Shown: positions 11,460 to 56,760, counted from the first letter of the stretch. The stretch is DNA of 64,000 bases from a virus (IMGVR_UViG_3300006467_000563:4337-68336); one strand, 5' to 3'. Translations and numbers: made by a program. Notes: generated from the sequence alone by a model not told the origin.

Positions 11460-11468
11460 AGGTTTACT

Positions 11469-43310: not shown

Positions 43311-43941
43311 CAAAGAGTTTATCGTCAGTTATGACGAGGCCACGGACAAAATTCAAACAGGCGATGTTCTTTTATTTAGGGCACCGCCTTTTCCTTCGAT
43401 TGGATGGGCGATTACTGCTTATACGAGAGGTAAACACTCTCATGTAGCATTAGCTTACAAACAACATGGTAAAGTTTATTGTCTGGAGCAAAGAGAATTT
43501 AAAGGTGGTCGAATGGTCTTTTTGAAGACTCAGGTTGACCTAAATCCCGGTAGAATAGACGTTTATCGTCCAAAAGATGAAATTATCTCCAACGTCAGTG
43601 AAGAAGAAAATGGAGAAATTTTCATAAAAAAGAGCAAAATAGTATTTACTCCTGACGTTGCGAATGCTATAATTGATACAGGAATGGAGTTAACCGGAAC
43701 TGAATACGGTTGGAAAACAATTTGGAATATCTTTAAAGGATATGCCCCGTTTTTCAGAATGGTTTACAAGGACAAAAATGGTGATGACGAAATTGCCAAA
43801 GCGTATGTTTGTAGTACATTAGTTTCTTACGCATACCGAACTAATTTCGCTGACCCGTGTCCAAATATTAAAGATAGTCGAACTACTCCTGCTGACATAG
43901 CACAATCAAGTTTGTTTGATTATCTATTTACAATTGAATAG
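43303..43941 (+). CDS. putative papain-fold (NlpC/P60-like) Cys-His hydrolase
   Basis: GKHSHVALAY ... YVCSTLVSYAY spacing suggests a permuted papain-like catalytic pair; weak. Confidence 0.4.
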   Translation: MANKEFIVSYDEATDKIQTGDVLLFRAPPFPSIGWAITAYTRGKHSHVALAYKQHGKVYCLEQREFKGGRMVFLKTQVDLNPGRIDVYRPKDEIISNVSEEENGEIFIKKSKIVFTPDVANAIIDTGMELTGTEYGWKTIWNIFKGYAPFFRMVYKDKNGDDEIAKAYVCSTLVSYAYRTNFADPCPNIKDSRTTPADIAQSSLFDYLFTIE

Positions 43942-43951
43942 CAAGAAAAAA

Positions 43952-44030
43952 ATGGAGGTCGCGGGTTCGAATCCCGTCAGTGTTTAGGCACTGTGGTCTA
44001 GTGGACAAGGACGCCATATAATACATGGGA
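43952..44030 (+). tRNA. tRNA-like locus with apparent 3'-half then 5'-half order (possible circularly permuted tRNA)
   Basis: 3' piece AGGTC-GCGGG-TTCGAAT-CCCGT-CAGTGTT-T is followed 2 nt later by a 5' piece GGCACTG-TG-GTCT-AGTGGACAA-GGAC-G-CCATA. The 5' piece has a Glu/Gln/Asp-type D-arm. Its acceptor pairs 7/7 (two G.U) with the upstream 3' piece. No partner exists in normal order. Confidence 0.35.
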
Positions 44031-44168
44031 ATTGGTGGTTGGATTCCGCCAACCTGTTTGTCTTAAATAGTAACAGAGACAACTGCGAAAATGAGACAGA
44101 TTGTTTTAGCCTAAACAACTAAAATAATTATAAACAGGTTTAGTTTAATGCGAAAACGCCCGTGACCA

Positions 44169-44243
44169 TGGGATGTAGCTCAGTTGGTTTAGAGTGCTGG
44201 CTTTGGAAGCTAGAAGTCGCCGGTTCGAGTCCGGTCATCCCGA
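44169..44243 (+). tRNA. tRNA-Pro (TGG)
   Basis: Cloverleaf: acceptor TGGGATG/CATCCCG, D-stem GCTC/GAGT, anticodon loop TTTGGAA, T-arm GCCGG-TTCGAGT-CCGGT. Confidence 0.75.
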
Positions 44244-44317
44244 CTGAGCGGAAGATTGTGGTTCGAATCCACATCGCCTAGAATATCTGGGCGGTCGTCT
44301 AATGGCAGGACATCCGC
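44244..44317 (+). tRNA. second tRNA-like locus with 3'-half then 5'-half order (possible permuted or remnant tRNA)
   Basis: 3' piece CTGA-GCGGA-AGAT-TGTGG-TTCGAAT-CCACA-TCGCCTA is followed by a 5' piece TGGGCGG-TC-GTCT-AATGGCA-GGAC-A-TCCGC. Its anticodon stem TCCGC is exactly complementary to GCGGA in the upstream piece. Acceptor pairs 7/7 with wobbles. Confidence 0.35.
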
Positions 44318-44321
44318 GTGA

Positions 44322-44396
44322 GGCCAAGTAATACCTAGCGGCTATGGTGCTTCTTTTACAAGGAAGAGTTCGTGGGTTCGAGTCCCACCTTGGCTA
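44322..44396 (+). tRNA. tRNA-Val (TAC), atypical D-arm
   Basis: Acceptor GGCCAAG/CTTGGCT, anticodon arm CTTCT-TTTACAA-GGAAG, T-arm GTGGG-TTCGAGT-CCCAC; D region folds poorly. Confidence 0.55.
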
Positions 44397-44420
44397 CTTA
44401 TTTTATAACTGGAGGCAGTA

Positions 44421-45164
44421 ATGTGGAAGGTAATTCTTTTTCTTTTGCTAATCTCACCATGTATGGCAGACCAAGGCTTAATTGCCAAGAAACCATATGA
44501 TGATGAAATATATGTCTGCAAGAAAAGAACTCTCTATATTGCTGTTGACAAAACAGAGCTAACTACGTTAGAATCTAGCTTAACTAAAAGATGGATTGAT
44601 AGAGTCAATCCGAAAGTTCTAGCAACACTTGATTCGGATTTTATTTCTGACAAAATGTTGGAATATGACTTACGTGTTGCGAACATCAAGAGGCATTTTG
44701 ATGTCAAATTTGTAGACTGGTATGACCAGAATATTACCTACTACCCAGCTTATAAAATTGGAAGTGTTTGGCATCCATTGCCTAAAGGTGAGTATGAATC
44801 TCATAGGTGGTTGCAATTTTGGGAGTGGTTCATTCGTGAGTGGAATCTTCTAGATAATCATGAGCGATGGGATATCAAAAAATGGTCCATAAGAAATGAA
44901 GTATACAATCAACGTACAGCAGACAGAAAAAAGTTTGTTGAAAATTTAGTCTCAAATAGCGATGGTAGATACAGTTACGTTGAATATGGATGCGACGAAG
45001 TAGACGAAATTGGTGACTGTGGTTATTATGTCGTATTCGATAATAATACACAAGAAGGTGTTACCATATTTGATATTGGTTATGTCCCAAAACATATGCC
45101 AGCAGAGCCAGTGGAACCAGTAAGTACTGAATGTCCATTGGACCCAAAATACAAAATAAACTAA
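44421..45164 (+). CDS. secreted hypothetical protein
   Basis: Signal peptide MWKVILFLLLISPCMA; GGAGGCAGTAATG RBS. Confidence 0.5.
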   Translation: MWKVILFLLLISPCMADQGLIAKKPYDDEIYVCKKRTLYIAVDKTELTTLESSLTKRWIDRVNPKVLATLDSDFISDKMLEYDLRVANIKRHFDVKFVDWYDQNITYYPAYKIGSVWHPLPKGEYESHRWLQFWEWFIREWNLLDNHERWDIKKWSIRNEVYNQRTADRKKFVENLVSNSDGRYSYVEYGCDEVDEIGDCGYYVVFDNNTQEGVTIFDIGYVPKHMPAEPVEPVSTECPLDPKYKIN

Positions 45165-45167
45165 TAT

Positions 45168-45240
45168 GGGGTTATAGCTCAATTGGATAGAGCAACGGTC
45201 TTCTACACCGTAGGTCGGGGTTCGAGTCCCTGTAGCCCTA
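45168..45240 (+). tRNA. tRNA-Arg (TCT)
   Basis: GGGGTTA-TA-GCTC-AATTGGATA-GAGC-A-ACGGT-CTTCTAC-ACCGT-AGGTC-GGGGTTCGAGTCCCT-GTAGCCC... clean cloverleaf. Confidence 0.8.
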
Positions 45241-45245
45241 CTTAA

Positions 45246-45320
45246 CTCGCTGTAGCTCAATTTGGTAGAGCGGCGGTCTGAAGAGCCGCGTCTGTAATGG
45301 TTCGATTCCATTTAGCGGGA
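45246..45320 (+). tRNA. tRNA-Phe (GAA)
   Basis: D-arm GCTC-AATTTGGTA-GAGC, anticodon loop CTGAAGA, T-arm AATGG-TTCGATT-CCATT, acceptor CTCGCTG/TAGCGGG. Confidence 0.8.
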
Positions 45321-45388
45321 CTTTTAAAAAAAATACGACAGATGGCATTGACAACATGATTCAACTCATGTACAATATGCAAAACAAC

Positions 45389-45458
45389 GTGGAAGTAGCT
45401 CAGTTTGGTAGAGCAGGGTTCGCGACCTGTGTCGGTGGTTCGATTCCACCCTTCCCGG
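45389..45458 (+). tRNA. tRNA-like gene with non-pairing anticodon stem (possible Ala-CGC pseudogene)
   Basis: Canonical D-arm and T-arm (GGTGG-TTCGATT-CCACC), but no 5-bp anticodon stem can be formed around TTCGCGA. Acceptor 5/7. Confidence 0.35.
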
Positions 45459-45517
45459 CTTGCAGAAGAACAAAGGGTGTGTTCGTACAATGGGCACATT
45501 TTTCTTCTGCTAAACAT

Positions 45518-45591
45518 TGGAGATTGGTGAAGAGGACTAACACACTCCCCTCATAAGGGAATATTCACGGGTTCGAATCCCGTATCTCCTA
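45518..45591 (+). tRNA. tRNA-Met/Ile2-type (CAT)
   Basis: Anticodon arm CTCCC-CTCATAA-GGGAA, T-arm ACGGG-TTCGAAT-CCCGT, acceptor TGGAGAT/ATCTCCT with a 1:72 mismatch. Confidence 0.65.
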
Positions 45592-45727
45592 TTAGAATGT
45601 TCTCCGCACGAGAACGCGGCATTAAGCGGGAGGGGATACCCTTGACATACGGAAGACTGCTATAGAAGTCCAAGTATTTTCGGTAATAGAACGACTTACC
45701 CTCATGCGGAGAATATTTTATACATAT
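45592..45727 (+). ncRNA. candidate structured RNA (long-range inverted repeat)
   Basis: TTCTCCGCA near the 5' end pairs with TGCGGAGAA about 110 nt downstream; internal GC-rich hairpins; no ORF on the + strand. Confidence 0.25.
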
Positions 45728-45796
45728 CGCAGATGGTCCGGTGACCAGCCAAGCCTCATAAGCTAGGATAGACAGGTTCAACCCCTGTATCTGCCA
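45728..45796 (+). tRNA. tRNA-like (CAT) with miniature D-arm and C1.C72 mismatch
   Basis: Anticodon arm CAAGC-CTCATAA-GCTAG (one mismatch), T-arm ACAGG-TTCAACC-CCTGT, acceptor CGCAGAT/ATCTGCC. D-arm reduced to GGTC-CGGT-GACC. Confidence 0.4.
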
Positions 45797-45950
45797 TTTT
45801 TGTAGGAGTTAACTTAACAGCTACATGCTATAGCTTAATAGTTATCTTCTGCATTATGTCTAGGAGTTGCGGTAGTTGGTTACTACACTCTCTTATAAGC
45901 AAAAGTCCTTAAGAGAAACCAAAAACAACTCTATTGGACATAAAATTTTC

Positions 45951-46565
45951 TCAAATTCGAGATATAAAATGCTGTTCTCTATGACAATTAGCACATAGAA
46001 GTTGACATTTATCTAACTCGGATTTGATTTTAATATGATGCTTCTCCCAAGAAGTGTGTCTGGCTTTTGATATATTAAAGTCTTTTTCAGTTGGGTCAAC
46101 ATGATGAAAGTCTAATGCCCCTTGACATTTATCGTAACCGCATTTTTCGCATTTGCCGCCCTTGTATTCAATACACTTTTGTTTCATAAGCTGATGTCTT
46201 TCTATTGCTTTTTCGGTATTACATGTTTTGCAAGTAGGATGATATGTGAATTTGATTTTACTCGTTCTTTTATGAAAGAATGATATATCTTTTTCTATAT
46301 TGCATTTGTTACAAACTTTTGTTTTTAGTTCAGTATAAACTTTTTTATAAGCACCGATGTCGAAACATTTTTTACAATAAGTTAAATTTGCTGCAATTTT
46401 TTCTTGACAAATTTTACATTCTTTTGTAAGATGTCTTTTAACATGAATTTTGTTATTATATGTTGCAGAACATGAGCGGCTACAAAAGTGATTAGGGCTT
46501 TTTTTAATTTCACTTGGTAGTTTTTTAAATTCCGTGTTACAGTTTAAACAATTGACCTGTGGCAT
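45951..46565 (-). CDS. HNH homing endonuclease
   Basis: Cys-rich zinc ribbons plus LDFHHVDP...CANCH HNH motif; the only sizeable minus-strand gene, sitting inside the tRNA cluster. Confidence 0.7.
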   Translation of the reverse strand: MPQVNCLNCNTEFKKLPSEIKKSPNHFCSRSCSATYNNKIHVKRHLTKECKICQEKIAANLTYCKKCFDIGAYKKVYTELKTKVCNKCNIEKDISFFHKRTSKIKFTYHPTCKTCNTEKAIERHQLMKQKCIEYKGGKCEKCGYDKCQGALDFHHVDPTEKDFNISKARHTSWEKHHIKIKSELDKCQLLCANCHREQHFISRI

Positions 46566-46628
46566 GATATTCCTTCGTGTTTGTTATATTGTTGTTAGTT
46601 CGTCTCCCACTATATTATACACCTTTTT

Positions 46629-46700
46629 CGCGTCTAAAGTGTTATTGGCTGCATTTCTGGCTTCCAACCAGACGGTCAGGGTTCGAGTCCCTGTAGACGC
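46629..46700 (+). tRNA. tRNA-Gly (TCC)
   Basis: Acceptor GCGTCTA/TAGACGC perfect, anticodon arm TCTGG-CTTCCAA-CCAGA, T-arm CAGGG-TTCGAGT-CCCTG; unusual AA at positions 8-9. Confidence 0.75.
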
Positions 46701-46947
46701 ACTTTCGGGCTATTTTCGGATTTGCCTAGATAACGGAAGAATTAACTTCAAGTAGTGGTTGATGGACAGGCCACTTTAAAAGTCTATCAAAAAGTAACTG
46801 CAAAACAGTTCGCAATCGCTGCGTAATAGCAGCTAATGATGCCTGACTGAGCTATAAATCATGTCAAAACAGGTAGAAGCTGTAAAGCCTGTGGATTTAT
46901 CTCAGCAACAACATATACTTTGCCGGTGAAGTCATCGGATAAACTTG

Positions 46948-46984
46948 TAAACGTTATTTGAATAAATTATACTAGAAACGACGG
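46948..46984 (+). other. orphan tRNA 3' half (T-arm plus acceptor strand)
   Basis: GACGG-TTCGAAT-CCGTC-ATAGTCC-A with no complementary 5' acceptor strand within 300 nt upstream. Confidence 0.35.
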
Positions 46985-47018
46985 TTCGAATCCGTCATAG
47001 TCCAATAGATATTGATAT

Positions 47019-47564
47019 ATGTACACAAAATTAGTTTGTAACTATTGTGGTAATTACTTCGAAAAGAAAACCAACGAATATAATAGATGCGTCAAAAAAG
47101 GACAAAAGAATTATTTTTGTTCTAGGGACCATGCAAACAAATTTTTACCACGGCCACACTTAAAACCGAGAATGGAAAATATCATTCCCGGCTCATTTAA
47201 AGATGAATATTCTGATTTTAAGTGGTATATGAAGGTTGTAAGAAATCGATGTAATAAAAAACAATACGAAACAGATATTAGTTTAATGTTTTTAAAACAT
47301 CTTTGGAAAGAACAAGAAGGTAAATGTGCATTAACTCAAATACCTATGCAATTAAGAACTCATGATAGTTCAGATAAGTTGGAATTTTATACTGCATCGT
47401 TAGACAGGATAGACAACACAAAAAGATATACAAAAGATAATGTTAGATTTGTCTGTGTTATGACTAACTATGCGAGAAATACTTTTTCTGATAATGATTT
47501 TTATGAGTTTATAAAACTAGCATCAAAAGCTATTTTAGGAAAAGGAAAAAAGGATGGCAATTAA
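47019..47564 (+). CDS. putative homing-endonuclease-like zinc-finger protein
   Basis: N-terminal CNYCG...C..HANKF zinc ribbon like the neighbouring HNH genes; no clear HNH motif. Confidence 0.4.
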   Translation: MYTKLVCNYCGNYFEKKTNEYNRCVKKGQKNYFCSRDHANKFLPRPHLKPRMENIIPGSFKDEYSDFKWYMKVVRNRCNKKQYETDISLMFLKHLWKEQEGKCALTQIPMQLRTHDSSDKLEFYTASLDRIDNTKRYTKDNVRFVCVMTNYARNTFSDNDFYEFIKLASKAILGKGKKDGN

Positions 47565-48159
47565 CAAACAACCCACTCTAGGAAAAAAAGCACAAGAAGC
47601 CGGTATCAAAGATGCAGTGCATGTTGCTATCGTTTCGTGTCGTGCTGGTGGACCCCTCTCTCCCGGTGATAGGGTGAAACTCAACGAGTATAGAGAAGCA
47701 ATCAAGACATATAGTAAAGACTATATCGGAGTTGCTGACCCTTTCATTAAGGGAGGTATTGACAAAGGAAGTTTCTTCTGGCTTGTAATGAAGCCTAATG
47801 AAACTGAAGCAGTTCGGCATGTTTGGGACCACGAATTGGACTTTTCCGCTCCAGACCGTGAAGTTCAGGAATGCAAATGGATAAAAGAGTACGCAGACGA
47901 CCTTGGGGTGAGCTATCAGTTCTTGATGGATGCTGCAAGAAAAGCTGTCAATGGAGAGTCTTCTCCTAAGTACGAAGGAACAAAAACTCAGGAAGAAATC
48001 GAAGAAGTATTAGATGACTTCTATGACTTCTGGTATTACTGGAGCGAAGAAACTGGATACGAGTTTGAAAACTGTGGGTCTGCGTGTTGTCCAGAATACG
48101 AACATCCTTCCTCGTTTAGTATATTTGACTATTCTGAAGCTAAGAGTGAAGAATCTTAG
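47554..48159 (+). CDS. paralog family X, copy 3
   Basis: DAVHVAIVS, PGDRVKL, VADPFI, KGSFFWLVMKP and RHVWDHELDF blocks; tail CGSACCPEYEH. Confidence 0.6.
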   Translation: MAINKQPTLGKKAQEAGIKDAVHVAIVSCRAGGPLSPGDRVKLNEYREAIKTYSKDYIGVADPFIKGGIDKGSFFWLVMKPNETEAVRHVWDHELDFSAPDREVQECKWIKEYADDLGVSYQFLMDAARKAVNGESSPKYEGTKTQEEIEEVLDDFYDFWYYWSEETGYEFENCGSACCPEYEHPSSFSIFDYSEAKSEES

Positions 48160-48170
48160 ACTTTAGATAA

Positions 48171-48244
48171 CAACCCATAGTGTCAATGGTCTAGCACATT
48201 ACTCTGATAAGGTAATAGTCGTGGTTCGAGTCCACGTGGGTTGA
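48171..48244 (+). tRNA. tRNA-Ile (GAT)
   Basis: Acceptor CAACCCA/TGGGTTG perfect, D-arm GTGT-CAATGGTCTA-GCAC, anticodon arm TTACT-CTGATAA-GGTAA, T-arm CGTGG-TTCGAGT-CCACG. Confidence 0.8.
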
Positions 48245-48248
48245 CTTT

Positions 48249-48319
48249 CGCATCTTAGTTTAAAGCTAGAATACCTACCATGAGGGTAGGAGACGGTGGT
48301 TCAATTCCATCAGGTGCGA
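48249..48319 (+). tRNA. tRNA-like with atypical anticodon loop
   Basis: Acceptor CGCATCT/AGGTGCG and T-arm GGTGG-TTCAATT-CCATC are good; the anticodon region forms a CCTACC/GGTAGG stem with a 5-nt loop or an ACCATGA loop lacking U33. Confidence 0.35.
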
Positions 48320-48382
48320 CTTTAAGAGATGTTAGAAAAATAGGTCGTCTATCAACCTTTGTTCTCCGGCATCTCTTTATAA

Positions 48383-48455
48383 TGTGGAGTAGCTCAATTG
48401 GCAGAGCACTTGTCTTGTAAACAAGAGGTTGCGGGTTCGATGCCCGTCTCCACAT
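48383..48455 (+). tRNA. tRNA-Thr (TGT)
   Basis: Acceptor TGTGGAG/CTCCACA, anticodon arm CTTGT-CTTGTAA-ACAAG, T-arm GCGGG-TTCGATG-CCCGT. Confidence 0.8.
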
Positions 48456-48460
48456 CTTAT

Positions 48461-48533
48461 GCCTCTGTAGCTCAATGGTTAGAGCAAGAAACTCTAAACT
48501 TCTTGGTTGCAGGTTCGAATCCTGTCGGGGGCA
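48461..48533 (+). tRNA. suppressor tRNA, anticodon CTA (reads UAG amber)
   Basis: 73 nt canonical cloverleaf GCCTCTG-TA-GCTC-AATGGTTA-GAGC-A-AGAAA-CTCTAAA-CTTCT-TGGTT-GCAGG-TTCGAAT-CCTGT-CGGGGGC-A. Loop has U33, CUA at 34-36, A37. Confidence 0.6.
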
Positions 48534-48717
48534 CTGTTTTTATTTTTAACAAAACTATCTTCAAAGGAGAAAAGTAATGTTGTAGGTTGACGAAAAATGG
48601 TTAGCACATGGTGAATTAGTTTGGAGTTTCTATCAGAAGCTCTTAAAAGGTGACTGGGATAATTTAAGACTCCCAGAGTGGTTTGTAGAGCATCACGAAA
48701 TACTCGTATCTCTTCAG

Positions 48718-49392
48718 TTGCCTATCAAACAAGTTAAACAGTATATCATTTATCACGATTGCGGAAAGCATTTGTGTGAAACTGTTGACGAAGGTGGTAA
48801 ACATTATCCAGACCACGCGAATGTTTCTGCTGATTATTGGGCAGAACATAGTGATGACAAACTAGTTGAGAAGTTGATTCGTAATGATATGTTTTTTCAT
48901 ATCTGTAAAGCGAATGACTTAAAAGAAACAACACTAACCAAACGTGAATTAGCAACATTATTAGTGACAGCACTTGCTGAGATTCATGCCAATGCAGAAA
49001 TGTTCGGTGGAATCGAATCACAATCTTTCAAAATTAAATACAAGCAGATTGAAAGACGTGGCAAATCCTTCGTAAAAGATAATCTTATCGACAATTACAA
49101 GGGTTACACATACTGTTTTGTGAGAACAGATATTACTCCCTCTCAACAAGCAGTACAAATGTCACATGCGTGCATTGAAGCACAGAAAAAATTCAGTCCT
49201 AGTAGGCATCCATCAATTGTGGCTATCGGGACTAAAAAGAAAAAAATACAAAAAATTATACAGGAATGTATTGACAACGAGATAGATTTCGCTATATTTA
49301 GAGATAACATATTTGATAACGAGGTCACAGCAATTGCAACTGAACCTCTTTATGAAAACAGAAAAGTTTTTGACAGGTATACATTACTCTAA
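48718..49392 (+). CDS. hypothetical protein (possible HD-like metal-dependent hydrolase)
   Basis: YHDCGKH...HYPDH His/Asp pattern; weak. Confidence 0.4.
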   Translation: MPIKQVKQYIIYHDCGKHLCETVDEGGKHYPDHANVSADYWAEHSDDKLVEKLIRNDMFFHICKANDLKETTLTKRELATLLVTALAEIHANAEMFGGIESQSFKIKYKQIERRGKSFVKDNLIDNYKGYTYCFVRTDITPSQQAVQMSHACIEAQKKFSPSRHPSIVAIGTKKKKIQKIIQECIDNEIDFAIFRDNIFDNEVTAIATEPLYENRKVFDRYTLL

Positions 49393-49410
49393 ATTAAAGG
49401 ACCAACTATC

Positions 49411-49848
49411 GTGTTAGTCTCGAAGTACAATCCAAAATTTGATGGTTGTTTACATGTACAACAATACAAACAACTATCTGAACTTTATCTGGAAAATTTT
49501 AATGCTCCAGTATTGACATACAACGAGTTTGTCGATAGAATCAATTCAGACGATGTCACTATTTACACTTTCGAAGTGGGTGACAAAGTAGTGGCAACAG
49601 CTTCAGGATATTTATACCCGTCTCTGTTACACGGTGGACAGCCTAGAATGCAGATTGAAAATGTCTGCACTAGAAAAGAGCATCAAGGTAATGGATATGC
49701 ATCACATTTAATCGGATTGCTCATAGAGCTGGCAGAAGAAAAAGGGTGCTATAAAGTATCACTAAGCTGTTCTGACAAAAACTTGGACTTCTATCAGAAT
49801 AGAGGTTTCAAACAACATGAACACACTATGAGGATTGATTTGGTATGA
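49411..49848 (+). CDS. GNAT family N-acetyltransferase
   Basis: RKEHQGNGYASHLIGLLIELA acetyl-CoA binding motif region. Confidence 0.6.
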   Translation: MLVSKYNPKFDGCLHVQQYKQLSELYLENFNAPVLTYNEFVDRINSDDVTIYTFEVGDKVVATASGYLYPSLLHGGQPRMQIENVCTRKEHQGNGYASHLIGLLIELAEEKGCYKVSLSCSDKNLDFYQNRGFKQHEHTMRIDLV

Positions 49849-50039
49849 CTACTGCTGATACGCATTTAGAGAATGCAAGAGACAAAGTAAAAGAGGCTGT
49901 TCGTGACCTATCACAAATTTTAATCGAAGAGTGTTATGGACATGATGAATATGCTGAAAGTTTCAATTTAAAACTGGAATCAGCATTTACAAAACTGAGA
50001 GTAGTTGATAAACTACTAAATAATAAAGATATCGAATAA
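49845..50039 (+). CDS. small hypothetical protein
   Basis: 64 aa; ATGA overlap. Confidence 0.35.
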   Translation: MTTADTHLENARDKVKEAVRDLSQILIEECYGHDEYAESFNLKLESAFTKLRVVDKLLNNKDIE

Positions 50040-50229
50040 AAACGACAAGGCGAATGATATGACTCGTCACCATATTATGCTTGCCGCAAACCAATCAACT
50101 GCTGCTCGCAGAGAGCATAAAGTTGTATTGAGAACATATTCCACAACGACGATTACAGTGGTGCAGATTGAGACGTGAGGGTAATTGCCTCTAACTTCCA
50201 TCTAAATGTTTGCTAGATTTTTATTCATC

Positions 50230-50285
50230 GCGGGTAATGCTAAGGGAATCATTGACTAAGCTGGCGGTTTGAATCCGCTCCCGCA
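50230..50285 (+). other. truncated tRNA-like minihelix (about 56 nt)
   Basis: GCGGG...GGCGG-TTTGAAT-CCGCT-CCCGC-A: acceptor and degenerate T-arm present, no anticodon arm. Confidence 0.25.
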
Positions 50286-50442
50286 ACCAACAAATAATGT
50301 ATGACAAGCCGAATGACTATGAATCAACTTGGCGTAAACCTGTTTTTAGGTCGCTACTAAAGACAGAGAATTGAGTACAGGCTAGTGAATTAGCTACTCA
50401 CGAACAGGTCTGTAGAAATGTTTACTTGATACATTAAAATAT

Positions 50443-50517
50443 GGCGGTGTAGTCCAATTGGCAGGAGACGCATGTCTTAGGAACATGACAGTATGGGTTC
50501 GAATCCCATTGCCGCTA
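50443..50517 (+). tRNA. tRNA with anticodon TAG (Leu-type) but class I architecture
   Basis: Perfect anticodon arm CATGT-CTTAGGA-ACATG (U33, G37), T-arm ATGGG-TTCGAAT-CCCAT, acceptor GGCGGTG/TGCCGCT; only a 5-nt variable loop. Confidence 0.55.
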
Positions 50518-50815
50518 CTTTTATGGCCGTGAGTGAAAAGAGGCTGTTGAAATACATAAGCCGTTCACCTTAATAGTATGATAAATGTGTCAAATAAAAC
50601 ATACTGTATCTTACGCTTTGACTTATTGCGTCGGTCATATTTAATATAAGAGGTCGAGCCGGTGTGCGACTAAGTCTAGTAGACTGCTAGATTGAATACG
50701 TCGGTTCATCCAGAAGTTAACTGGCTTATGTGCGAACGCGGAGTAGTCACTGCTTAGTAGGCATATGTTTGGGCTTCATCACGGATGCACATCGGCACGC
50801 CCTCTTATATAACAT

Positions 50816-50906
50816 TCCCCGGTACGCTAACTGGTAAGCGGCCAAGCTGTTAACTTGGTGTAGTCCGTCTTTGAACGGTATAGAGGTTCGACTCCTCTCT
50901 GGGGAG
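50816..50906 (+). tRNA. class II-like tRNA with anticodon GTT (Asn-type; Tyr-like long variable arm)
   Basis: Acceptor TCCCCGG/CTGGGGA, D-arm CGCT-AACTGGTA-AGCG, anticodon arm CCAAG-CTGTTAA-CTTGG, 23-nt variable arm with CCGT/ACGG stem, T-arm AGAGG-TTCGACT-CCTCT. Confidence 0.55.
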
Positions 50907-50921
50907 CTTAGGAGAAATACT

Positions 50922-51356
50922 ATGAAGGTTTTGATTAGCGGACATAGAAAATCAAAATTAGCCAACTATGACATCAAATGGATATCTAATGAAATAGAAC
51001 GGCTTATATTTGAGAATCCAGCTATAATTGGATTATCAGGGATGGCCGATGGCATAGACCTTTTATACTGCCAACTATTACTTCAATATAGGCGTGGGTA
51101 TCATTGCTATATCCCCTTTGATGAACAAGACAAGTATATGTCAGACCATGATAAAACATGGCGTCAAAGTTTAATTGACTCATCTTGGGCTGTCATAAAA
51201 GCAAAAAATTCACAAATGGTTTCAGATTGTGATTATGGAATCATAGTTTGGGATGGAAATAAAGGTGGTACACACAACGTGTTCCAGCAAATGCTCGAAG
51301 CAAAGAAAAACTTTTGGTGGATTGAACCACATAATCAAAAAGTAATTTATTTTTAA
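50922..51356 (+). CDS. SLOG/YpsA-like (DprA/LOG-fold) protein
   Basis: MKVLISGHRK...GLSGMADGIDLL pattern resembles the YpsA/SLOG nucleotide-binding family. Start set at the internal ATG with AGGAGAAATACTATG RBS to avoid overlap with the tRNA. Confidence 0.4.
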   Translation: MKVLISGHRKSKLANYDIKWISNEIERLIFENPAIIGLSGMADGIDLLYCQLLLQYRRGYHCYIPFDEQDKYMSDHDKTWRQSLIDSSWAVIKAKNSQMVSDCDYGIIVWDGNKGGTHNVFQQMLEAKKNFWWIEPHNQKVIYF

Positions 51357-51429
51357 GGTATTAAAATGTCTATTAAACGCAAACGCAAACATCGATAAAC
51401 GCATGGAGTTTATGACTTCATGTTAGCAT

Positions 51430-51501
51430 GGGGTCATGGTGTAGCGGTTGCATTGCAGACTTTTAATCTGTTAGGCGGGGGTTCGAATCCCTCTGGCCCT
51501 A
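51430..51501 (+). tRNA. tRNA-Lys (TTT)
   Basis: D-arm GTGT-AGCGGTT-GCAT, anticodon arm GCAGA-CTTTTAA-TCTGT, T-arm GGGGG-TTCGAAT-CCCTC, acceptor GGGGTCA/TGGCCCT. Confidence 0.75.
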
Positions 51502-51529
51502 TTTTTAAACACATATGAAAAAAAGATAT

Positions 51530-51604
51530 AGGGGATTAGTTCAATTGGATAGAATATCAGTCTACGAAACTGAAGATGTTGAGGTTCGAGTCCTACATTC
51601 CCTA
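51530..51604 (+). tRNA. tRNA-Arg (ACG)
   Basis: D-arm GTTC-AATTGGATA-GAAT, perfect anticodon arm TCAGT-CTACGAA-ACTGA, acceptor AGGGGAT/ATTCCCT; T-stem only 3 bp. Confidence 0.7.
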
Positions 51605-51612
51605 CTTTATTT

Positions 51613-52035
51613 ATGAAAAAACAATGCTATCAATGCAACCAAGAGTTGCCACTATCCTCTTTTAATAAAAACTGCAAGAAAAAAGATGGGTTGCAATCAG
51701 AGTGTAGAGATTGTGGCAAGACGTACCGTAAACAGCATTATCAAGATAACAAACAGTATTATATAGATAAGGCAGTAAAAAGACGGGACAACAATGTTAA
51801 AAAACTTACGCCTTTATTAGTAGAATATCTGGAACAGAATCCTTGTGTGGACTGTGGAAACAATGATATACGTGTGCTGCATTTTGACCATTTAGAAAAT
51901 AAGCAATATCATGTCCCGGAAATGATTAGACTAGGACATAGTTGGCAAAATATTCTATCTGAGATATCGAAATGCGATGTTAGATGTGCTAACTGTCACG
52001 CCATCAAAACATGGCCGAACAGGTTTGATACTTAG
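51613..52035 (+). CDS. HNH homing endonuclease
   Basis: N-terminal zinc ribbon; HFDHLENK...CANCH. Confidence 0.65.
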   Translation: MKKQCYQCNQELPLSSFNKNCKKKDGLQSECRDCGKTYRKQHYQDNKQYYIDKAVKRRDNNVKKLTPLLVEYLEQNPCVDCGNNDIRVLHFDHLENKQYHVPEMIRLGHSWQNILSEISKCDVRCANCHAIKTWPNRFDT

Positions 52036-52044
52036 GAATAAAAC

Positions 52045-52254
52045 ATGGAAATCACTGGAAAAGAAGTATCGGAATGGCTAATTAGCAATAAAGACAGGCT
52101 TGCTTTTATCTTGCCAAAAGTCGATGTTGCTGAATTAGGCAAATGTATCTATGCTGTTGAAGATGATGCAATTATTTTTATGCTTCAGGAAATTCAATAT
52201 CCAGAAGTTAAGCTGGACAACATGTGTCCTGAAATAGATAATACGGGGGCGTAG
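52045..52254 (+). CDS. small hypothetical protein
   Basis: 69 aa. Confidence 0.3.
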   Translation: MEITGKEVSEWLISNKDRLAFILPKVDVAELGKCIYAVEDDAIIFMLQEIQYPEVKLDNMCPEIDNTGA

Positions 52255-52319
52255 CCCAATTAGGCAGAGGCAAGCGACTTAAAATCGCTCCAGTATGGGT
52301 TCGAGTCCCATCGTCCCTA
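52245..52319 (+). tRNA. tRNA with anticodon TAA (Leu-type), class I architecture
   Basis: Perfect anticodon arm AGCGA-CTTAAAA-TCGCT, T-arm ATGGG-TTCGAGT-CCCAT, acceptor GGGGGCG/CGTCCCT; 5-nt variable loop. Confidence 0.6.
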
Positions 52320-52367
52320 CTCACGTGACAGTTTTAAAAGAGGTTTCTGTACAAAAAACCAATACAT

Positions 52368-52439
52368 ACCAGATTAGTGTAATTGGTAGCACATCGGTTT
52401 CCAAGTCCGAAAGTCAGGGTTCGAGTCCTTGGTCTGGTG
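52368..52439 (+). tRNA. tRNA-Trp (CCA)
   Basis: Acceptor ACCAGAT/GTCTGGT, D-arm GTGT-AATTGGTA-GCAC, anticodon loop TTCCAAG, T-arm CAGGG-TTCGAGT-CCTTG. Confidence 0.8.
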
Positions 52440-52449
52440 CTTTTTTAAT

Positions 52450-52531
52450 GGGAATACTACGCTTGTGGGAAAGTGGGATGGGTTGTAACCCCGTCGTCTC
52501 TGACTAAGCGGTTCGATTCCGTATATTCCCA
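52450..52531 (+). tRNA. tRNA-Tyr (GTA), class II
   Basis: Perfect acceptor GGGAATA/TATTCCC, anticodon arm ATGGG-TTGTAAC-CCCGT, 12-nt variable arm, T-arm AGCGG-TTCGATT-CCGTA. Confidence 0.7.
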
Positions 52532-52544
52532 CTTGGAGGTTCAA

Positions 52545-52769
52545 ATGTCAAAATTCTTATTTTTCGATATCTTAGGATATTTAGAAGAGACAGATACTCC
52601 AGTACTCAAAAAATGGTTCGACTTCGATAAAGAAGAAGGACAAATTTTGATTAAAGATTATGTTTTTACCGTAAGACCAAAAGATTCGTATATAATTGGA
52701 AAAATTCCACAAACGGACTTGAATTACGACAACTACATAACTATAATTGATACAATCAACGAAGGATAA
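52545..52769 (+). CDS. small hypothetical protein
   Basis: Internal ATG (MSKFLFF) just downstream of tRNA-Tyr with GGAGGTTCAAATG RBS. Confidence 0.35.
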   Translation: MSKFLFFDILGYLEETDTPVLKKWFDFDKEEGQILIKDYVFTVRPKDSYIIGKIPQTDLNYDNYITIIDTINEG

Positions 52770-52772
52770 AAC

Positions 52773-53180
52773 ATGCATTGGCCAAAACTATTTTTCAAAC
52801 GTGCAGACGGTGGTGAAAAATCTGGTGTAACTGGTTATATGTTGATTGAATGGAAGTCAGTTTTCTCAATTGGGCTGTTACATTTTAAAGAAGGCTCACG
52901 AGAAGCATTTCATACACACGCATTCAATGCTATTACTTGGTGGCTTAAAGGTCTTGTTGTAGAAGTACACGCTAATGCGGATAATATACTTGACAAATTC
53001 AAATTATTTCGTCCGTCATTAAAACCAAAATTTACAAGTAGAGACTGCTATCATAAAATTATAGCATACACAGATACTTGGGCCTTAACTTTTCGAGGAC
53101 CGTGGAAAAACGAATGGAAAGAGTTAAGACCTGACGGTGAAGTAGTTTTAACTCATGGAAGAAAAATTCAGTCTCTATAA
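52773..53180 (+). CDS. hypothetical protein
   Basis: 135 aa. Confidence 0.4.
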   Translation: MHWPKLFFKRADGGEKSGVTGYMLIEWKSVFSIGLLHFKEGSREAFHTHAFNAITWWLKGLVVEVHANADNILDKFKLFRPSLKPKFTSRDCYHKIIAYTDTWALTFRGPWKNEWKELRPDGEVVLTHGRKIQSL

Positions 53181-53344
53181 ATAATATCAACTTGAGAGTA
53201 TAACAGATTCATGACTGGCCGTAGTTGAGAACATAAGAAACGCTACGAGCAAGTTGGTAACTGAAACCGTGGGAGGCAGCGGTATACAAACAGCCTTATA
53301 TGAGGGCTGGCATGTACCAAGGGGGCGAGAAATACTTGCAATAT

Positions 53345-53368
53345 TTCTGTGACGAGTTCGATTCTCGT
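53345..53368 (+). other. orphan tRNA 3' half (T-arm plus acceptor strand)
   Basis: ACGAG-TTCGATT-CTCGT-TCGGTCC-A at the end of a 200-nt noncoding region; no matching 5' acceptor strand. Confidence 0.3.
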
Positions 53369-53379
53369 TCGGTCCATTT

Positions 53380-53904
53380 ATGATATATTATATAGAAAAA
53401 TCTGGTAGAAAACGAAAAGGAATAGAGAAGACATGTCCTGTATGTCATAATTTGTTTGTAACTAGACTAGACCAACAAGGAACATATTGTTCTAAACAGT
53501 GCTGTTCTGATAGTCGTAAGAATAAGGTACAATTACAATGTGACTGCTGTGATAAATTGTTTTACAGACATCCTAGTGCTTTATCTTGTTCAAAAAGCGG
53601 GTTTTATTTTTGTTCTAGGGAATGTAAGGACAAATCACAAAGACTTGGTGGTATTGAAGAAATTATGCCGAGTCACTACGGTTCATTCCAAGGTAGAAAA
53701 TCAGCTATATATCGTAGAACATATAAAGAGCTGAATAATATAGAAATACTATCATGTATTCGCTGCGGATATTCTGAATTTGAATCTGCTGTAGACATCC
53801 ATCATATTGATGAAAATTGTAATAACAACTCAATAGAAAACTTAACTGCCTTATGTGCGTGTTGTCATAGGGGATTACATTATAGGCTGTGGGAATTACA
53901 ATGA
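53380..53904 (+). CDS. HNH homing endonuclease
   Basis: Multiple CxxC pairs; AVDIHHIDEN...CACCH. Confidence 0.65.
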   Translation: MIYYIEKSGRKRKGIEKTCPVCHNLFVTRLDQQGTYCSKQCCSDSRKNKVQLQCDCCDKLFYRHPSALSCSKSGFYFCSRECKDKSQRLGGIEEIMPSHYGSFQGRKSAIYRRTYKELNNIEILSCIRCGYSEFESAVDIHHIDENCNNNSIENLTALCACCHRGLHYRLWELQ

Positions 53905-54344
53905 TAGTAGAACCAAAAGAAATTCCATATGTCAAAATTTTAGATGGACAGACGGTTGGTCTAACAAGCGGTTGTTTTGACTTGCTCCACTTCTATCATT
54001 TGAATTATCTATTACGTTGTAAAGCTAGATGCGATGTTTTAATCGTAGGCGTCGATGCTGACGACGTAGTCCAAGAAAACAAAGGTAAAGCACCAGCTAA
54101 TCCTGAATATCACAGAGCAGCAATGTTAGCCGCATTAGACTGTGTTGATGTGGTTTTTGTCTTACGAAGTCTTGATGACCTAGTAAAAGCTGGTGACCAT
54201 GCAGATTTTCTGTTTAAAAATAATCCAACTATTTACGGACAAGAAGTAGTTGGTACGCAAAGAGCAGAATTGGTAATCGTGCCAGATGTTGAGGAAGTTA
54301 CTTCAACAACTGCTCTGAAAGATAAAATCAGGAGAGATACATGA
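53901..54344 (+). CDS. cytidylyltransferase-family nucleotidyltransferase
   Basis: GLTSGCFDLLHFYHLNYL matches the (H/T)xGH nucleotidyltransferase motif; start taken at the internal ATG. Confidence 0.6.
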   Translation: MIVEPKEIPYVKILDGQTVGLTSGCFDLLHFYHLNYLLRCKARCDVLIVGVDADDVVQENKGKAPANPEYHRAAMLAALDCVDVVFVLRSLDDLVKAGDHADFLFKNNPTIYGQEVVGTQRAELVIVPDVEEVTSTTALKDKIRRDT

Positions 54345-54490
54345 GATTTACACAGCTTAAAAATGGTGAAGGAATTAAACGCGGTGTAATTGATATTATC
54401 GGTGCGTTTTCTGGAACCCCAAAAATAATACAGCATATGCAATTTCACGATGAAAATAATTTTGAGTCGAAAAATGAAGATGCTGAAAAT
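54341..54490 (+). CDS. small hypothetical protein (3' end clipped to avoid tRNA-Ser)
   Basis: ORF 54341..54535 runs into tRNA-Ser(GCT); coding status uncertain. Confidence 0.25.
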
Positions 54491-54578
54491 GGAAGAGAGC
54501 CGAATATTGGTTTGTCGGACTCGCCTGCTAAGTGAGGCCGTAGCAATGCGGTGATGGGTTCAATTCCCTCCTCTTCCG
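54491..54578 (+). tRNA. tRNA-Ser (GCT), class II
   Basis: Perfect acceptor GGAAGAG/CTCTTCC, D-arm CCGA-ATATTGGTTTG-TCGG, anticodon arm CTCGC-CTGCTAA-GTGAG, long variable arm. Confidence 0.75.
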
Positions 54579-54740
54579 CTTTAGTCAATCGGTTTCTAAC
54601 GAGAGAATACGTGGAAGATTGGTCCCATTAGACTAACCTGTGTTATCACGATGTTTTAGGTGCTGTGATTTAATGGAATTACTATGCAACACTACATATA
54701 TAGCACAGGCGTAGCAAAGTCTCTTATTGACTACTTATTT

Positions 54741-54827
54741 GGAAGCTATCCTGCTGGATTAGGAGCTTGTTTAGAAAACATGTGGGTCAGAAATGGCCTT
54801 GGTCGGGTTCGAGTCCCCCAGCTTCCG
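54741..54827 (+). tRNA. class II tRNA (Ser/Leu-type), anticodon ambiguous (AGA or TAG)
   Basis: Perfect acceptor GGAAGCT/AGCTTCC, D-arm CCTG-CTGGAT-TAGG paralogous to tRNA-Ser(TGA), long variable arm. Anticodon stem CTTGT/ACATG has a T.T mismatch around loop TTAGAAA. Confidence 0.5.
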
Positions 54828-54835
54828 CTTTTTAT

Positions 54836-54909
54836 GGTGACTGTAGTGTAATTGGTTAGCACGGGACCTTGTGACGGTTCTAGTGCGGGTTCAAGTCCCG
54901 TCGTTCACC
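54836..54909 (+). tRNA. tRNA-His (GTG) with encoded G-1
   Basis: Extra 5' G opposite discriminator C; D-arm GTGT-AATTGGTTA-GCAC; anticodon arm GGACC-TTGTGAC-GGTTC; T-arm GCGGG-TTCAAGT-CCCGT. Confidence 0.8.
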
Positions 54910-54917
54910 CCTTTTTT

Positions 54918-55002
54918 GGAAGTCATCCGGCTGGATGAGGGTGCTGTCTTGAAAATAGCTGTGTCATTTATGGCATTGTGGGTTCGAGTCCCACGGCTTC
55001 CG
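54918..55002 (+). tRNA. tRNA-Ser (TGA), class II
   Basis: Acceptor GGAAGTC/GGCTTCC, anticodon arm GCTGT-CTTGAAA-ATAGC, long variable arm, T-arm GTGGG-TTCGAGT-CCCAC. Confidence 0.75.
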
Positions 55003-55268
55003 CTTATGTAAAGTCTATGAGTTAATCCAACCCGGACAATGATTCGTAGCAAACACTGGAGGATAGGCAGGACGAAAGTGTAAAAGTCCAATGAAGGGCG
55101 GTTGTGGCAGTAGCTCCAACTTCCCAGAGGATGCTGTTTTTTCCCTGCAAAATAGACACCTTCGCTATCCTTCAGGTTTTATACAAGGAAATTAATATGG
55201 GCTGTCAATATATCTAGAGTGGTGTATTGATAATCACAATAAAATCAAAAAGACATTAGGACAATAAG

Positions 55269-55676
55269 ATGGACAGCTTTGAAACAAACTTTACGATTAT
55301 GCCAAAAGATGCAAACTATATGTATCCAATGGTATTCGGCGGAGCACTTTATTCCGAAATGGATTTATGTGCAGCAAAATGTGTTGATTTGTTTCTAATT
55401 CCATCTGAATGTCAGGCTGCTGTAACTCATAAGTCAAAAGTTGAGTTTATGAAGCCTACATACGTTGGTGATACAATTCACTTGTATGCTAATGTTGTGA
55501 GTACAGGTAAAAAATCAGTAGTAGTTTTTGTTTCAGCTCATAGAAATCGCAGAGGTGAAACGGGGCAAGAAAAAGTAGCAGATGGTGAATTTATTTTTGT
55601 GTCAATCGAAAATACTGACGATGTACAAAATAAGCCAGACCTACTTCCATATAAAGAACATGGATTAAATTTGTGA
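55269..55676 (+). CDS. hotdog-fold acyl-CoA thioesterase-like protein
   Basis: Length and hydrophobic-core pattern consistent with YciA/4HBT-type thioesterases; moderate. Confidence 0.5.
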   Translation: MDSFETNFTIMPKDANYMYPMVFGGALYSEMDLCAAKCVDLFLIPSECQAAVTHKSKVEFMKPTYVGDTIHLYANVVSTGKKSVVVFVSAHRNRRGETGQEKVADGEFIFVSIENTDDVQNKPDLLPYKEHGLNL

Positions 55677-55766
55677 CTTTTTTTTGGATTTTTCATGTTT
55701 TTATCTTTACTTTTTGGTCTTTCAATACTATTATCTATTGTAACAACACTTTTTAAAAAATAACAT

Positions 55767-55837
55767 GCCGTATTCGTCTATCGGGAGGATACTTGGTTCT
55801 CAGCCAAGAGAGAGGGGTTCGATTCCCCTATACGGTA
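55767..55837 (+). tRNA. tRNA-Glu (CTC)
   Basis: Glu-type D-arm TC-GTCT-ATCGGGA-GGAT, perfect anticodon arm CTTGG-TTCTCAG-CCAAG, T-arm AGGGG-TTCGATT-CCCCT. Confidence 0.7.
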
Positions 55838-55918
55838 CTTAGGGTAGAGAAGTAGAACTCTTATAAATGATAAGCAGGCGACCTGAAATCGCCGTTCAGC
55901 CTAATCGTCCTAAAACAC

Positions 55919-55991
55919 GCCGCATTCGTCTACTGGATAGGACACGTAGGTTTTCAACCTATGGACACGGGTTCGAATCCCGTATGCGGTA
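55919..55991 (+). tRNA. tRNA-Glu (TTC)
   Basis: TC-GTCT-ACTGGATA-GGAC D-arm, anticodon arm GTAGG-TTTTCAA-CCTAT, T-arm ACGGG-TTCGAAT-CCCGT. Confidence 0.75.
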
Positions 55992-56072
55992 CTTTATAGG
56001 ATGTTCGTCTAAGCGGGCTATAAACAAGGTAGCAGTGTTAAAAATATAACATGATTTGCTCCAATCCTACAT

Positions 56073-56145
56073 GGGGTTATAGCTCAAGTGGCAGAGCACC
56101 CGTCTCTTAAACGGGAGCGTGTGGGTTCGAGTACCACTAGCCCTA
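56073..56145 (+). tRNA. tRNA-Lys (CTT)
   Basis: GGGGTTA-TA-GCTC-AAGTGGCA-GAGC-A-CCCGT-CTCTTAA-ACGGG ...; same acceptor as tRNA-Arg(TCT). Confidence 0.8.
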
Positions 56146-56151
56146 CTTTTT

Positions 56152-56229
56152 AACTACGGAACTTAATATCAGCGGCTGGTAGCCGGACTGCAAATCTGGT
56201 AGTAAGCAGTTCGACTCTGCCTGTAGTTT
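56152..56229 (+). tRNA. tRNA-Cys (GCA), atypical D region
   Basis: Perfect acceptor AACTACG/TGTAGTT, anticodon arm CCGGA-CTGCAAA-TCTGG, T-loop TTCGACT; D region too long and irregular. Confidence 0.5.
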
Positions 56230-56240
56230 TTGAGGATTAT

Positions 56241-56447
56241 ATGAGGAAATTCATTAAAGAGGGAACATTCTGGGAAGATGGGGATGGGCTATTGTACAAA
56301 GTGATTTGTATAGCAAACTTCGATAATAAATCTCCCAATTTCCCAGAAACTGTTGTATATGAATCTTTTCCCAAAAATGAAGATTACACATATGCTAATA
56401 AAATTGATTACTTTTTAGAAAATATGCAACAAATTATTTGGGAATAA
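56241..56447 (+). CDS. small hypothetical protein
   Basis: 68 aa. Confidence 0.3.
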   Translation: MRKFIKEGTFWEDGDGLLYKVICIANFDNKSPNFPETVVYESFPKNEDYTYANKIDYFLENMQQIIWE

Positions 56448-56686
56448 GTTTGAAATCTCGCAAAGAAAAAAATATTATCGTTGAAGCAAAATTTAATGTT
56501 CCAACAGATAGTACACTCTACTACATATTCAAACGAGCAAATATGCTAGGGTGGAGAACATATAAAAGATACGCGAATCTAAGTGCAGCAGAAGAAGCAA
56601 TCAAAACGTTAAACAAAAATGGTTCAACTGCTCACCAAGAATTTCGCATAAAACAGTCGTGAGGTAGGACTTTAAACACCTCTCAT

Positions 56687-56760
56687 GGTCATGAAGCTCA
56701 GAAGGGAGTAGCATCCGGTTGTCAACCGGAAGGTTGCGGGTTCGACCCCCGTGATGACCG
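56687..56760 (+). tRNA. tRNA-Asp (GTC)
   Basis: Perfect anticodon arm TCCGG-TTGTCAA-CCGGA, T-arm GCGGG-TTCGACC-CCCGT, acceptor GGTCATG/GATGACC. Confidence 0.75.

Follow-up and report, generated by a model that had tools for sequence, protein, structure and literature searches.

Whether circularly permuted transfer RNA (tRNA) genes can be encoded by a phage, or whether another kind of RNA accounts for tRNA halves that lie in reversed order, is the question raised by two loci at the upstream end of a tRNA array in a viral DNA of 64,000 nucleotides (nt; IMGVR_UViG_3300006467_000563:4337-68336; this whole stretch is referred to as the window). At both locus 1 and locus 2 (Table 1) a tRNA 3' portion is placed directly upstream of a tRNA 5' portion, as described in an original prediction made from the sequence, which had proposed these loci as permuted tRNA genes. 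Our analysis retains the permuted order and the tRNA-like fold but not the role as decoding tRNAs. We consider it probable, with moderate confidence, that both loci are YrlA-type tRNA mimics which lack the Ro60-binding stem and are embedded in the phage tRNA array and processed together with it. The rotated topology itself is known from earlier work on the YrlA RNAs of bacteria and phages, tRNA mimics in which T-arm, acceptor and D-arm follow one another in this way (PMC4201824; 10.1101/312249), and we found no published description of a bare module without Ro60 stem or rsr gene in a tRNA slot.

The two acceptor-like strands pair at all seven positions in both loci, with two G.U pairs each, and the predicted exact complementarity between UCCGC and GCGGA in locus 2 (44313-17 with 44248-52) is present as well. 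A topology scanner that searches for a T-arm, a hairpin with 7/7 pairing and a D-arm finds exactly two sites in the window, compared to 0.01 expected from 200 shuffled sequences. At 100 T-arm-to-D-arm junctions from IMG/VR the corresponding acceptor positions mostly form one to three of the seven pairs (one pair in 43 junctions, three pairs in 24), and complete 7/7 pairing is seen in four. Neither ARAGORN nor the Rfam tRNA model RF00005 detects a tRNA in native order at either locus. After in silico rotation, a check proposed together with the original prediction, ARAGORN calls both loci as tRNAs, while neither 400 shuffles nor eight equivalent chimeras of normal, adjacent tRNAs give any call. 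This confirms that the two rotated tRNA-like units in the window are real and not the product of chance.

Direct reading of locus 1 reveals all nucleotides that form the elbow and the tertiary contacts of a tRNA, namely U8, A14, G18G19, U54, U55, C56 and A58, and the same set is present in locus 2. The Levitt pair 15:48 is G15:C48 in locus 1 and A15:U48 in locus 2, i.e. it covaries between the two. Folded without constraints, locus 2 adopts precisely the expected four-way junction as its minimum-free-energy structure (-29.1 kcal/mol, z = -2.75). Its acceptor-like hairpin (44274-94) is extended by a G73...C(-1) pair, conserved in the window and in the related contig L002, to a closed hairpin of 8 base pairs (bp). 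Locus 2 fills the entire spacer of 77-78 nt between tRNA-Pro and tRNA-Val, with 3-4 nt and 4 nt remaining outside the closing helix, and based on the ARAGORN calls its gap to these neighbours equals the gap between real tRNAs of the array.

Locus 2 is conserved in L002, a contig that encodes the same 212-amino-acid (aa) protein next to the array with diverged synonymous sites. The two versions of locus 2 differ at 13 positions, seven of which are located in stems; all seven substitutions preserve pairing and the tertiary contacts are kept. Pair 1-72 is changed from U-A to C-G by a double substitution, pairs 2-71 and 7-66 from G.U to G-C, pairs 3-70 and 6-67 from G-C to G.U, and one D-stem pair from G-C to G.U. 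Thus, six of the seven stem substitutions fall into the acceptor stem, where all seven pairs survive. Over the same divergence, a single compensated pair is seen in tRNA-Val. As only two distinct locus 2 sequences exist, the covariation is weak.

The only non-tRNA Rfam match at the two loci is the YrlA model (RF02553), which covers locus 1 from end to end (43930-44045, 35.2 bits). Taken alone this score is weak evidence, because the junction of an ordinary tRNA-Arg and tRNA-Phe in the array scores 28.7 bits with the same model, and independent links to Y RNAs were therefore sought. Ordinary tRNA dimers have also been remarked upon as false positives by the authors of the YrlA study (PMC4201824). 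Modules with 7/7 acceptor pairing occur in four unrelated IMG/VR contigs (L025, L027, L092 and L101), where they adopt the classic Y RNA fold with a long terminal stem, and in all four a TROVE/Ro60 open reading frame (ORF) adjoins the module. These phage YrlAs score 39-45 bits or are missed by Rfam, so that the score of locus 1 is typical for phage YrlAs. TROVE-linked phage YrlAs taken together, at 32.8-45.3 bits, also remain below the RF02553 threshold.

L136 is a more distant relative of the window (the 212-aa protein is 55% identical, the following syntenic gene 53%) and carries, 3 kb from the syntenic site, a gene for a 542-aa TROVE and vWA_Ro60 protein (rsr; region 13300-15234). This gene is preceded by a sigma-70-like promoter (TTGACA/TATAAT) and a canonical YrlA with the elements GGGCCGAC..., GCGGG-UUCGAGU-CCCGU, CCUC-GAAA-GAGG, UA, GCUC-AAUGGCA-GAGC and ...GCCC; the sequence before rsr also contains GGGCCGAAC in another Y RNA-like hairpin. 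As L136 has both rsr and a canonical YrlA, the wider lineage uses a Ro60/Y RNA system. The sequence after its rsr gene (15240-15600) contains odd tRNA-like sequences.

Several results weigh against the assignment of the two loci to YrlA-type mimics. The score of locus 1 is below the RF02553 gathering score of 69 and just 6.5 bits above that of the tRNA-Arg/tRNA-Phe junction (45189-45307), and locus 2 has no Rfam YrlA match at E <= 10. A Ro60-binding stem with the motif GNCGAAN0-1G was not found at either locus. Pairing between the flanks of locus 1 does not exceed that of shuffled sequences (-9.4 kcal/mol compared to -11.0 on average for shuffles); upstream, the locus is flanked by the end of an ORF, whose stop-codon region contains the nearest Ro60-like motif, AUUGAAUAG. 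At locus 2 the flanks of 3-4 nt leave no space for a Ro60 stem. In contrast, the motif is present in L092 (GGCCGAAG) and in L136, within the first of the elements listed above. No TROVE gene was detected in the 64 kb by Pfam searches of the large and flanking ORFs or by tblastn with five phage Rsr proteins including that of L136. YrlA-like modules are also missing from the closer relatives L122-L126, L134 and L135, and the whole locus 1 region is missing from L002. Finally, the preserved pairing in locus 2 corresponds to P = 0.04 under a transitions-only null model, which is suggestive rather than strong.

Similar arrangements were observed in further contigs. L025 harbours at least six repeats of GGYGUAGA...UUWCAUCG on the minus strand (10780-12560), three of them with full tRNA-like modules; they are interleaved with tRNAs directly upstream of rsr and look like a tandem Y RNA array. 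L083, a GC-rich phage contig, resembles the window in that two YrlA-type modules (6542-6725, minus strand) stand at the upstream end of its array of 29 tRNAs, and no TROVE gene is present in the 9.5 kb available. A different arrangement is seen in L004 (4659-4754) and 12 similar IMG/VR loci, where a normal tRNA-Gln is followed after 2 nt by a 5' acceptor strand and a D-arm. This strand pairs 7/7 (four G.U) with the tRNA-Gln's own 3' acceptor strand and ARAGORN makes no call; the element may be derived from a tRNA dimer or may be due to chance.

If the two loci are stemless YrlA-type mimics, they would carry only the effector module, i.e. the L-shaped top half of a tRNA whose arms are held by a short anticodon-stem-like helix. 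Both would be transcribed from the plus strand together with the phage tRNA array. Locus 2 could then be released as an RNA of about 77 nt, with its 5' end generated by 3' processing of tRNA-Pro and its 3' end by RNase P cleavage at tRNA-Val, while the locus 1 transcript would probably be ended by a terminator-like hairpin at 44032-52. Neither RNA would be decoded as a tRNA. Instead, both may use the tRNA elbow to bind or titrate a protein that recognises tRNAs, and a tie to the RNA-repair and tRNA-maintenance genes of the phage (RtcB, Rnl2-family ligase) is plausible. As to their origin, both loci most likely derive from tandem (dimeric) tRNA genes, with locus 1 apparently retaining a decaying second tRNA.

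Expression of the loci would imply that the tRNA-like module has a Ro60-independent role in phage infection. To our knowledge, YrlA-type mimics have been found almost only by searches beside rsr, and we know of no partner or function for the tRNA-like half. If expressed, locus 2 would thus offer a minimal object of 77 nt for finding the partner of this module. The finding also bears on annotation, where loci of this kind may pass for permuted tRNA genes or tRNA pseudogenes and an ordinary tRNA dimer may pass for a YrlA.

Table 1. Elements of the two rotated tRNA-like loci and other features of the window
Feature	Position	Strand	Basis or remark
Locus 1, tRNA-like module, rotated order	43952-44017	+	sequence; scanner match 43961-44012
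Locus 1 closing strand AUGG	43952-55	+	pairs with CCAU 44014-17 (4 bp)
Locus 1 variable AGGUC	between AUGG 43952-55 and T-arm	+	sequence
Locus 1 T-arm GCGGG-UUCGAAU-CCCGU	43961-77	+	sequence
Locus 1 acceptor-like hairpin	43978-93	+	followed by UG before the D-arm
Locus 1 3' acceptor strand CAGUGUU	43978-84	+	sequence
Locus 1 acceptor linker	U43985, A43986	+	sequence
Locus 1 5' acceptor strand GGCACUG	43987-93	+	7/7 pairs with CAGUGUU, two G.U
Locus 1 D-arm GUCU-AGUGGACAA-GGAC	43996-44012	+	followed by G, then CCAU 44014-17
Locus 1 attached degenerate second-tRNA remainder	44018-44057	+	sequence
Anticodon-like loop AUAAUAC of the remainder	44018-24	+	followed by AUGG 44025-28; hairpin CCAU-AUAAUAC-AUGG
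Non-canonical T-arm GGUGG-UUGGAUU-CCGCC of the remainder (GAAUU directly before it)	44034-50	+	sequence
tRNA-Pro(UGG)	44169-44243	+	ARAGORN; Rfam tRNA 61.2 bits
Locus 2, tRNA-like module of 77-78 nt	44244-44321	+	sequence; scanner; core 44248-44317
Locus 2 order: (C)UGA, GCGGA, AGAU, T-arm, acceptor hairpin, UC, D-arm, A, UCCGC, GUGA		+	
Locus 2 closing strands GCGGA / UCCGC	44248-52 / 44313-17	+	exact complement, 5 bp
Locus 2 T-arm UGUGG-UUCGAAU-CCACA	44257-73	+	preceded by AGAU
Locus 2 3' acceptor strand UCGCCUA	44274-80	+	followed by loop GAAUAUC
Locus 2 5' acceptor strand UGGGCGG	44288-94	+	7/7 pairs with UCGCCUA, two G.U
Locus 2 D-arm GUCU-AAUGGCA-GGAC	44297-311	+	UC before, A after
tRNA-Val(UAC)	44322-44396	+	ARAGORN; Rfam tRNA 53.1 bits
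One-piece transfer-messenger RNA (tmRNA), tag AKQFAIAA	46707-47007	+	inside the array
Amber-suppressor-type tRNA, anticodon CUA	48461-48534	+	ARAGORN label Pyl
ATP-dependent RNA ligase gene, Rnl2 family	20788-21852	+	Pfam PF09414, E = 6.7e-10
RtcB RNA ligase gene	22772-23896	+	Pfam PF01139, E = 2.3e-90

The array downstream of the loci comprises 26 tRNA genes and the tmRNA, all on the plus strand (44169-56993, 13.5 kb), in an island (43942-57419) that also holds about 12 small ORFs. Most of its tRNAs have a C right after the discriminator and none encodes a full CCA. One further tRNA-like gene (45389-45457, Rfam 35.4 bits) is missed by ARAGORN; judged by eye, it has an anticodon stem CAGG/CCUG around the 8-nt loop GUUCGCGA. 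A weak match to the tRNA-Sec model (54491-54577, 28.5 bits) upstream of two long-arm tRNA-Ser genes, likewise without an ARAGORN call, may be another degenerate or unusual tRNA. A possible parallel is phage T4, where the small stable species 1 and 2 RNAs, which are not tRNAs and have no known function, are co-transcribed and co-processed with a tRNA array. The two ligase genes form an RNA-repair set about 20 kb upstream of the array, and the neighbouring genes that were scanned include no rsr, rtcA or archease. RNA-repair sets of jumbo phages, which contain RtcB or Rnl and at times also TROVE and a tRNA-like partner, are the subject of a review (PMC7824862).

The relatives of the window, collected by homology to the 212-aa gene that ends at 43941, form a graded series of metagenomic contigs and show that the tRNA island between this gene and a trypsin-like gene (57420-59717) is hypervariable. 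Two contigs, L001 and L119, are identical to the window, the latter retrieved by a metagenome scan with the tRNA-Pro 3' end that otherwise returned mostly bacterial tRNA-Pro genes. The same flanking genes enclose zero to six tRNAs in relatives. In L125, L134, L135 and L136 they are adjacent or one to three tRNAs apart (a single tRNA-His in L125, one to three tRNAs in L134 and L135). L126 has six tRNAs after the 212-aa gene and ends before the trypsin-like gene could show, and L122 and L123 have other ORFs in place of the island. Homologues of the downstream ORF are found in other contexts without tRNAs. In the ENA contig L128 (1-135) the sequence is the same as in the window beginning with the locus 2 T-arm, but is preceded by foreign, GC-rich DNA with the 5' two-thirds of a tRNA-Gln(CUG)-like gene at its end; this contig was set aside as a relative, being probably an assembly chimera through shared tRNA words. 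Among cultured phages, megablast with the region and searches with a 765-aa protein gave no match, and the flanking protein retrieved by tblastn only a 24.5% match in Bacillus phage Goe8. RtcB is widespread and uninformative on relatives, and neither the flanking protein nor locus-specific patterns gave matches in IMG/VR.

The variability of the island bears on the strongest rival explanation, which we regard as rather unlikely: the loci could be non-functional remnants of a tandem tRNA duplication whose outer halves were lost or overwritten during island turnover. As tandem copies place the 3' half of copy 1 beside the 5' half of copy 2, the complementarity of both acceptor and anticodon stems would then arise free of selection. 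The difference between zero to six tRNAs in relatives and the 26 tRNAs plus tmRNA of the window is consistent with such turnover, and so are the absence of locus 1 from L002, the missing Ro60 stem and rsr, and the modest P value for the L002 pairing. The sequence that follows locus 1 also points in this direction. In the original prediction the 5' piece of locus 1 was thought to lack any partner in conventional order. Indeed, no 3' acceptor strand for GGCACUG exists, the 7 nt after the remainder T-arm do not pair, and ARAGORN finds no conventional tRNA in 43988-44070; however, the piece is continued by a degenerate hairpin of anticodon type and by a T-arm with G in place of C56. This T-arm doubles as the terminator-like hairpin and is followed by the U-rich tract CCUGUUUGUC (44032-44052, simple scan). 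Judged from its layout, locus 1 with this remainder would look like a tandem pair of the same tRNA that has lost the 5' part of copy 1 and the 3' end of copy 2. Such a layout agrees with the proposal that YrlA arose from dimeric tRNAs, a process of which locus 1 would resemble an intermediate, and would also allow for simple decay.

Other properties of the loci argue against remnants. The tertiary-contact nucleotides are intact throughout both loci, and locus 2 ends exactly at its 5-bp helix with tRNA-like spacing on both sides. Six of seven stem substitutions in L002 hit the locus 2 acceptor and all seven pairs survive, one of them by a double change. The array contains no parental tRNA for either locus: among the window's 27 tRNAs the best local alignments to either half score 10-18 over 27-36 nt. 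In addition, two independent cases occur 300 nt apart. Recombination scars, the alternative offered with the original prediction, have some probability, above all at locus 1; at locus 2 this alternative loses weight, as the substitutions in L002 leave the structure intact. The surroundings had been described as rich in HNH endonucleases, which was not borne out, as only one weak HNH match was obtained among about 20 ORFs scanned.

Between locus 1 and tRNA-Pro a long-range helix of AACCUGUUU (44050-58) and AAACAGGUU (44132-40) has two hairpins inside. The spacer of 227 nt has a fold that beats 200 of 200 shuffles (z = -3.8). In L002 a stretch of 28 nt with one small hairpin is found in place of the whole spacer.

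Could the loci instead be genuine Ro60-binding Y RNAs, with Ro60/Rsr encoded in the host or in phage DNA that has not been sequenced, and bound at a non-canonical site? We judge this improbable. It would be consistent with the co-occurrence of the module and TROVE in the four unrelated phage contigs and in L136, and with the match of locus 1 to the YrlA model over its full length. It would also agree with the presence in the window of RtcB, which usually accompanies rsr-yrlA in the RNA repair operons of bacteria. However, rsr lies about 0.1-2 kb from the RNA in every case seen, while none is present in the 44 kb upstream or the 20 kb downstream of the loci, and the place syntenic to the L136 rsr contains just a terminator and small ORFs. 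Moreover, the flanks of locus 1 are unpaired and locus 2 cannot have the stem.

The least probable reading, and a very improbable one in our view, is that of true circularly permuted tRNA genes, whose ends would be joined by a phage RNA ligase and which, after RNase P cleavage, 3' trimming and CCA addition, would decode. For locus 2 this would require that the 77-nt unit is excised by RNase Z and RNase P, that the Rnl2-family ligase or RtcB seals an anticodon loop of 7-8 nt, and that RNase P then opens the 7-bp acceptor hairpin and CCA is added. In favour of this reading, no tRNA arm departs from the canonical form and the rotated sequences are recognised by ARAGORN; cleavage by RNase P and RNase Z would yield a 5' phosphate and a 3' hydroxyl at the broken 'anticodon loop', and both an ATP-dependent ligase and RtcB are encoded. 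Joining the flanks of locus 2 (GUGA with UGA or UAA) gives U33 and the anticodon GAU, and the array contains no call for tRNA-Ala or tRNA-Cys. A 7-bp acceptor also makes RNase P cleavage plausible, as the YrlA of M. smegmatis has a 7-bp acceptor, is cleaved by RNase P and receives CCA (PMC4201824).

Against such a tRNA, the natural join of locus 2 after the discriminator produces an 8-nt loop, GUGACUGA, and the 7-nt loop GUGAUGA (GUGAUAA in L002) has G32 and, in the window, also G37. A tRNA-Ile(GAU) already exists at 48171, and U33 together with a purine at 37 is expected by chance in about 1 in 8 cases. At locus 1 the acceptor linker is just 2 nt long, the stem has 4 bp and the loop AUAAUAC would read AAU. 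The conserved G73...C(-1) pair closes the hairpin that RNase P would have to open in locus 2. A bulge-helix-bulge motif, which the original prediction had suggested looking for at the junction, is impossible at locus 2 because its flanks are the acceptor ends of real tRNAs. No splicing endonuclease was found by Pfam among the large and flanking ORFs scanned, and we know of no splicing-endonuclease system in bacteria. If this reading were true, locus 2 would be the first permuted tRNA gene outside algae and archaea, and its RNA would mature by a ligase without any splicing endonuclease.

Three further candidates were rejected: a recent copy of the phage's own tRNA (local alignments to the array tRNAs score just 10-18), an attP-type tRNA 3' fragment (what follows is the complementary 5' acceptor strand with a D-arm, and no integrase was found) and a permuted tmRNA (a one-piece tmRNA is present already, the permuted model RF04321 gives no match and RF00023 only an 18-nt T-arm match of 12.7 bits).

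Comparison with known systems places the loci closest to YrlA. They share with the permuted tRNA genes of Cyanidioschyzon merolae, some green algae and Thermofilum pendens the 3' half upstream of the 5' half, an acceptor first closed by an intervening loop, and transcript ends that form the anticodon stem. The permuted genes, however, encode a complete anticodon loop, which locus 2 lacks, form a bulge-helix-bulge for splicing endonuclease and ligase, and give rise to proven mature tRNAs. In two-piece tmRNA genes, too, the 5' acceptor strand comes after the T-arm and the 3' acceptor strand, to which a short excised linker joins it, but tmRNAs have no full D-arm and contain pseudoknots, a tag reading frame and a CCA end. 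From YrlA the loci differ by the absence of the long terminal helix with its GNCGAAN0-1G Ro60 site and of rsr within the window, by the D stem (GUCU/GGAC compared to the conserved GCUC/GAGC), and, for locus 2, by being a bare 77-nt module in a tRNA slot between two tRNAs. The YrlA class has been described as resembling circularly permuted tRNAs, and an origin from dimeric tRNAs has been proposed (PMC4201824; 10.1101/312249). Both loci share with this class the T-arm, the loop-closed acceptor stem and the D-arm inside an anticodon-stem-like helix, and the contacts U8-A14, G18G19 with U55C56, U54-A58 and the covarying 15:48 pair. Their 7-bp acceptor corresponds to that of M. smegmatis YrlA, and the class is likewise found in phages with large tRNA arrays, at times interleaved with tRNAs as in L025. 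Finally, the T-arm of locus 1 (GCGGG-UUCGA-CCCGU) with the following CAG is that of the YrlAs of S. Typhimurium and of L136.

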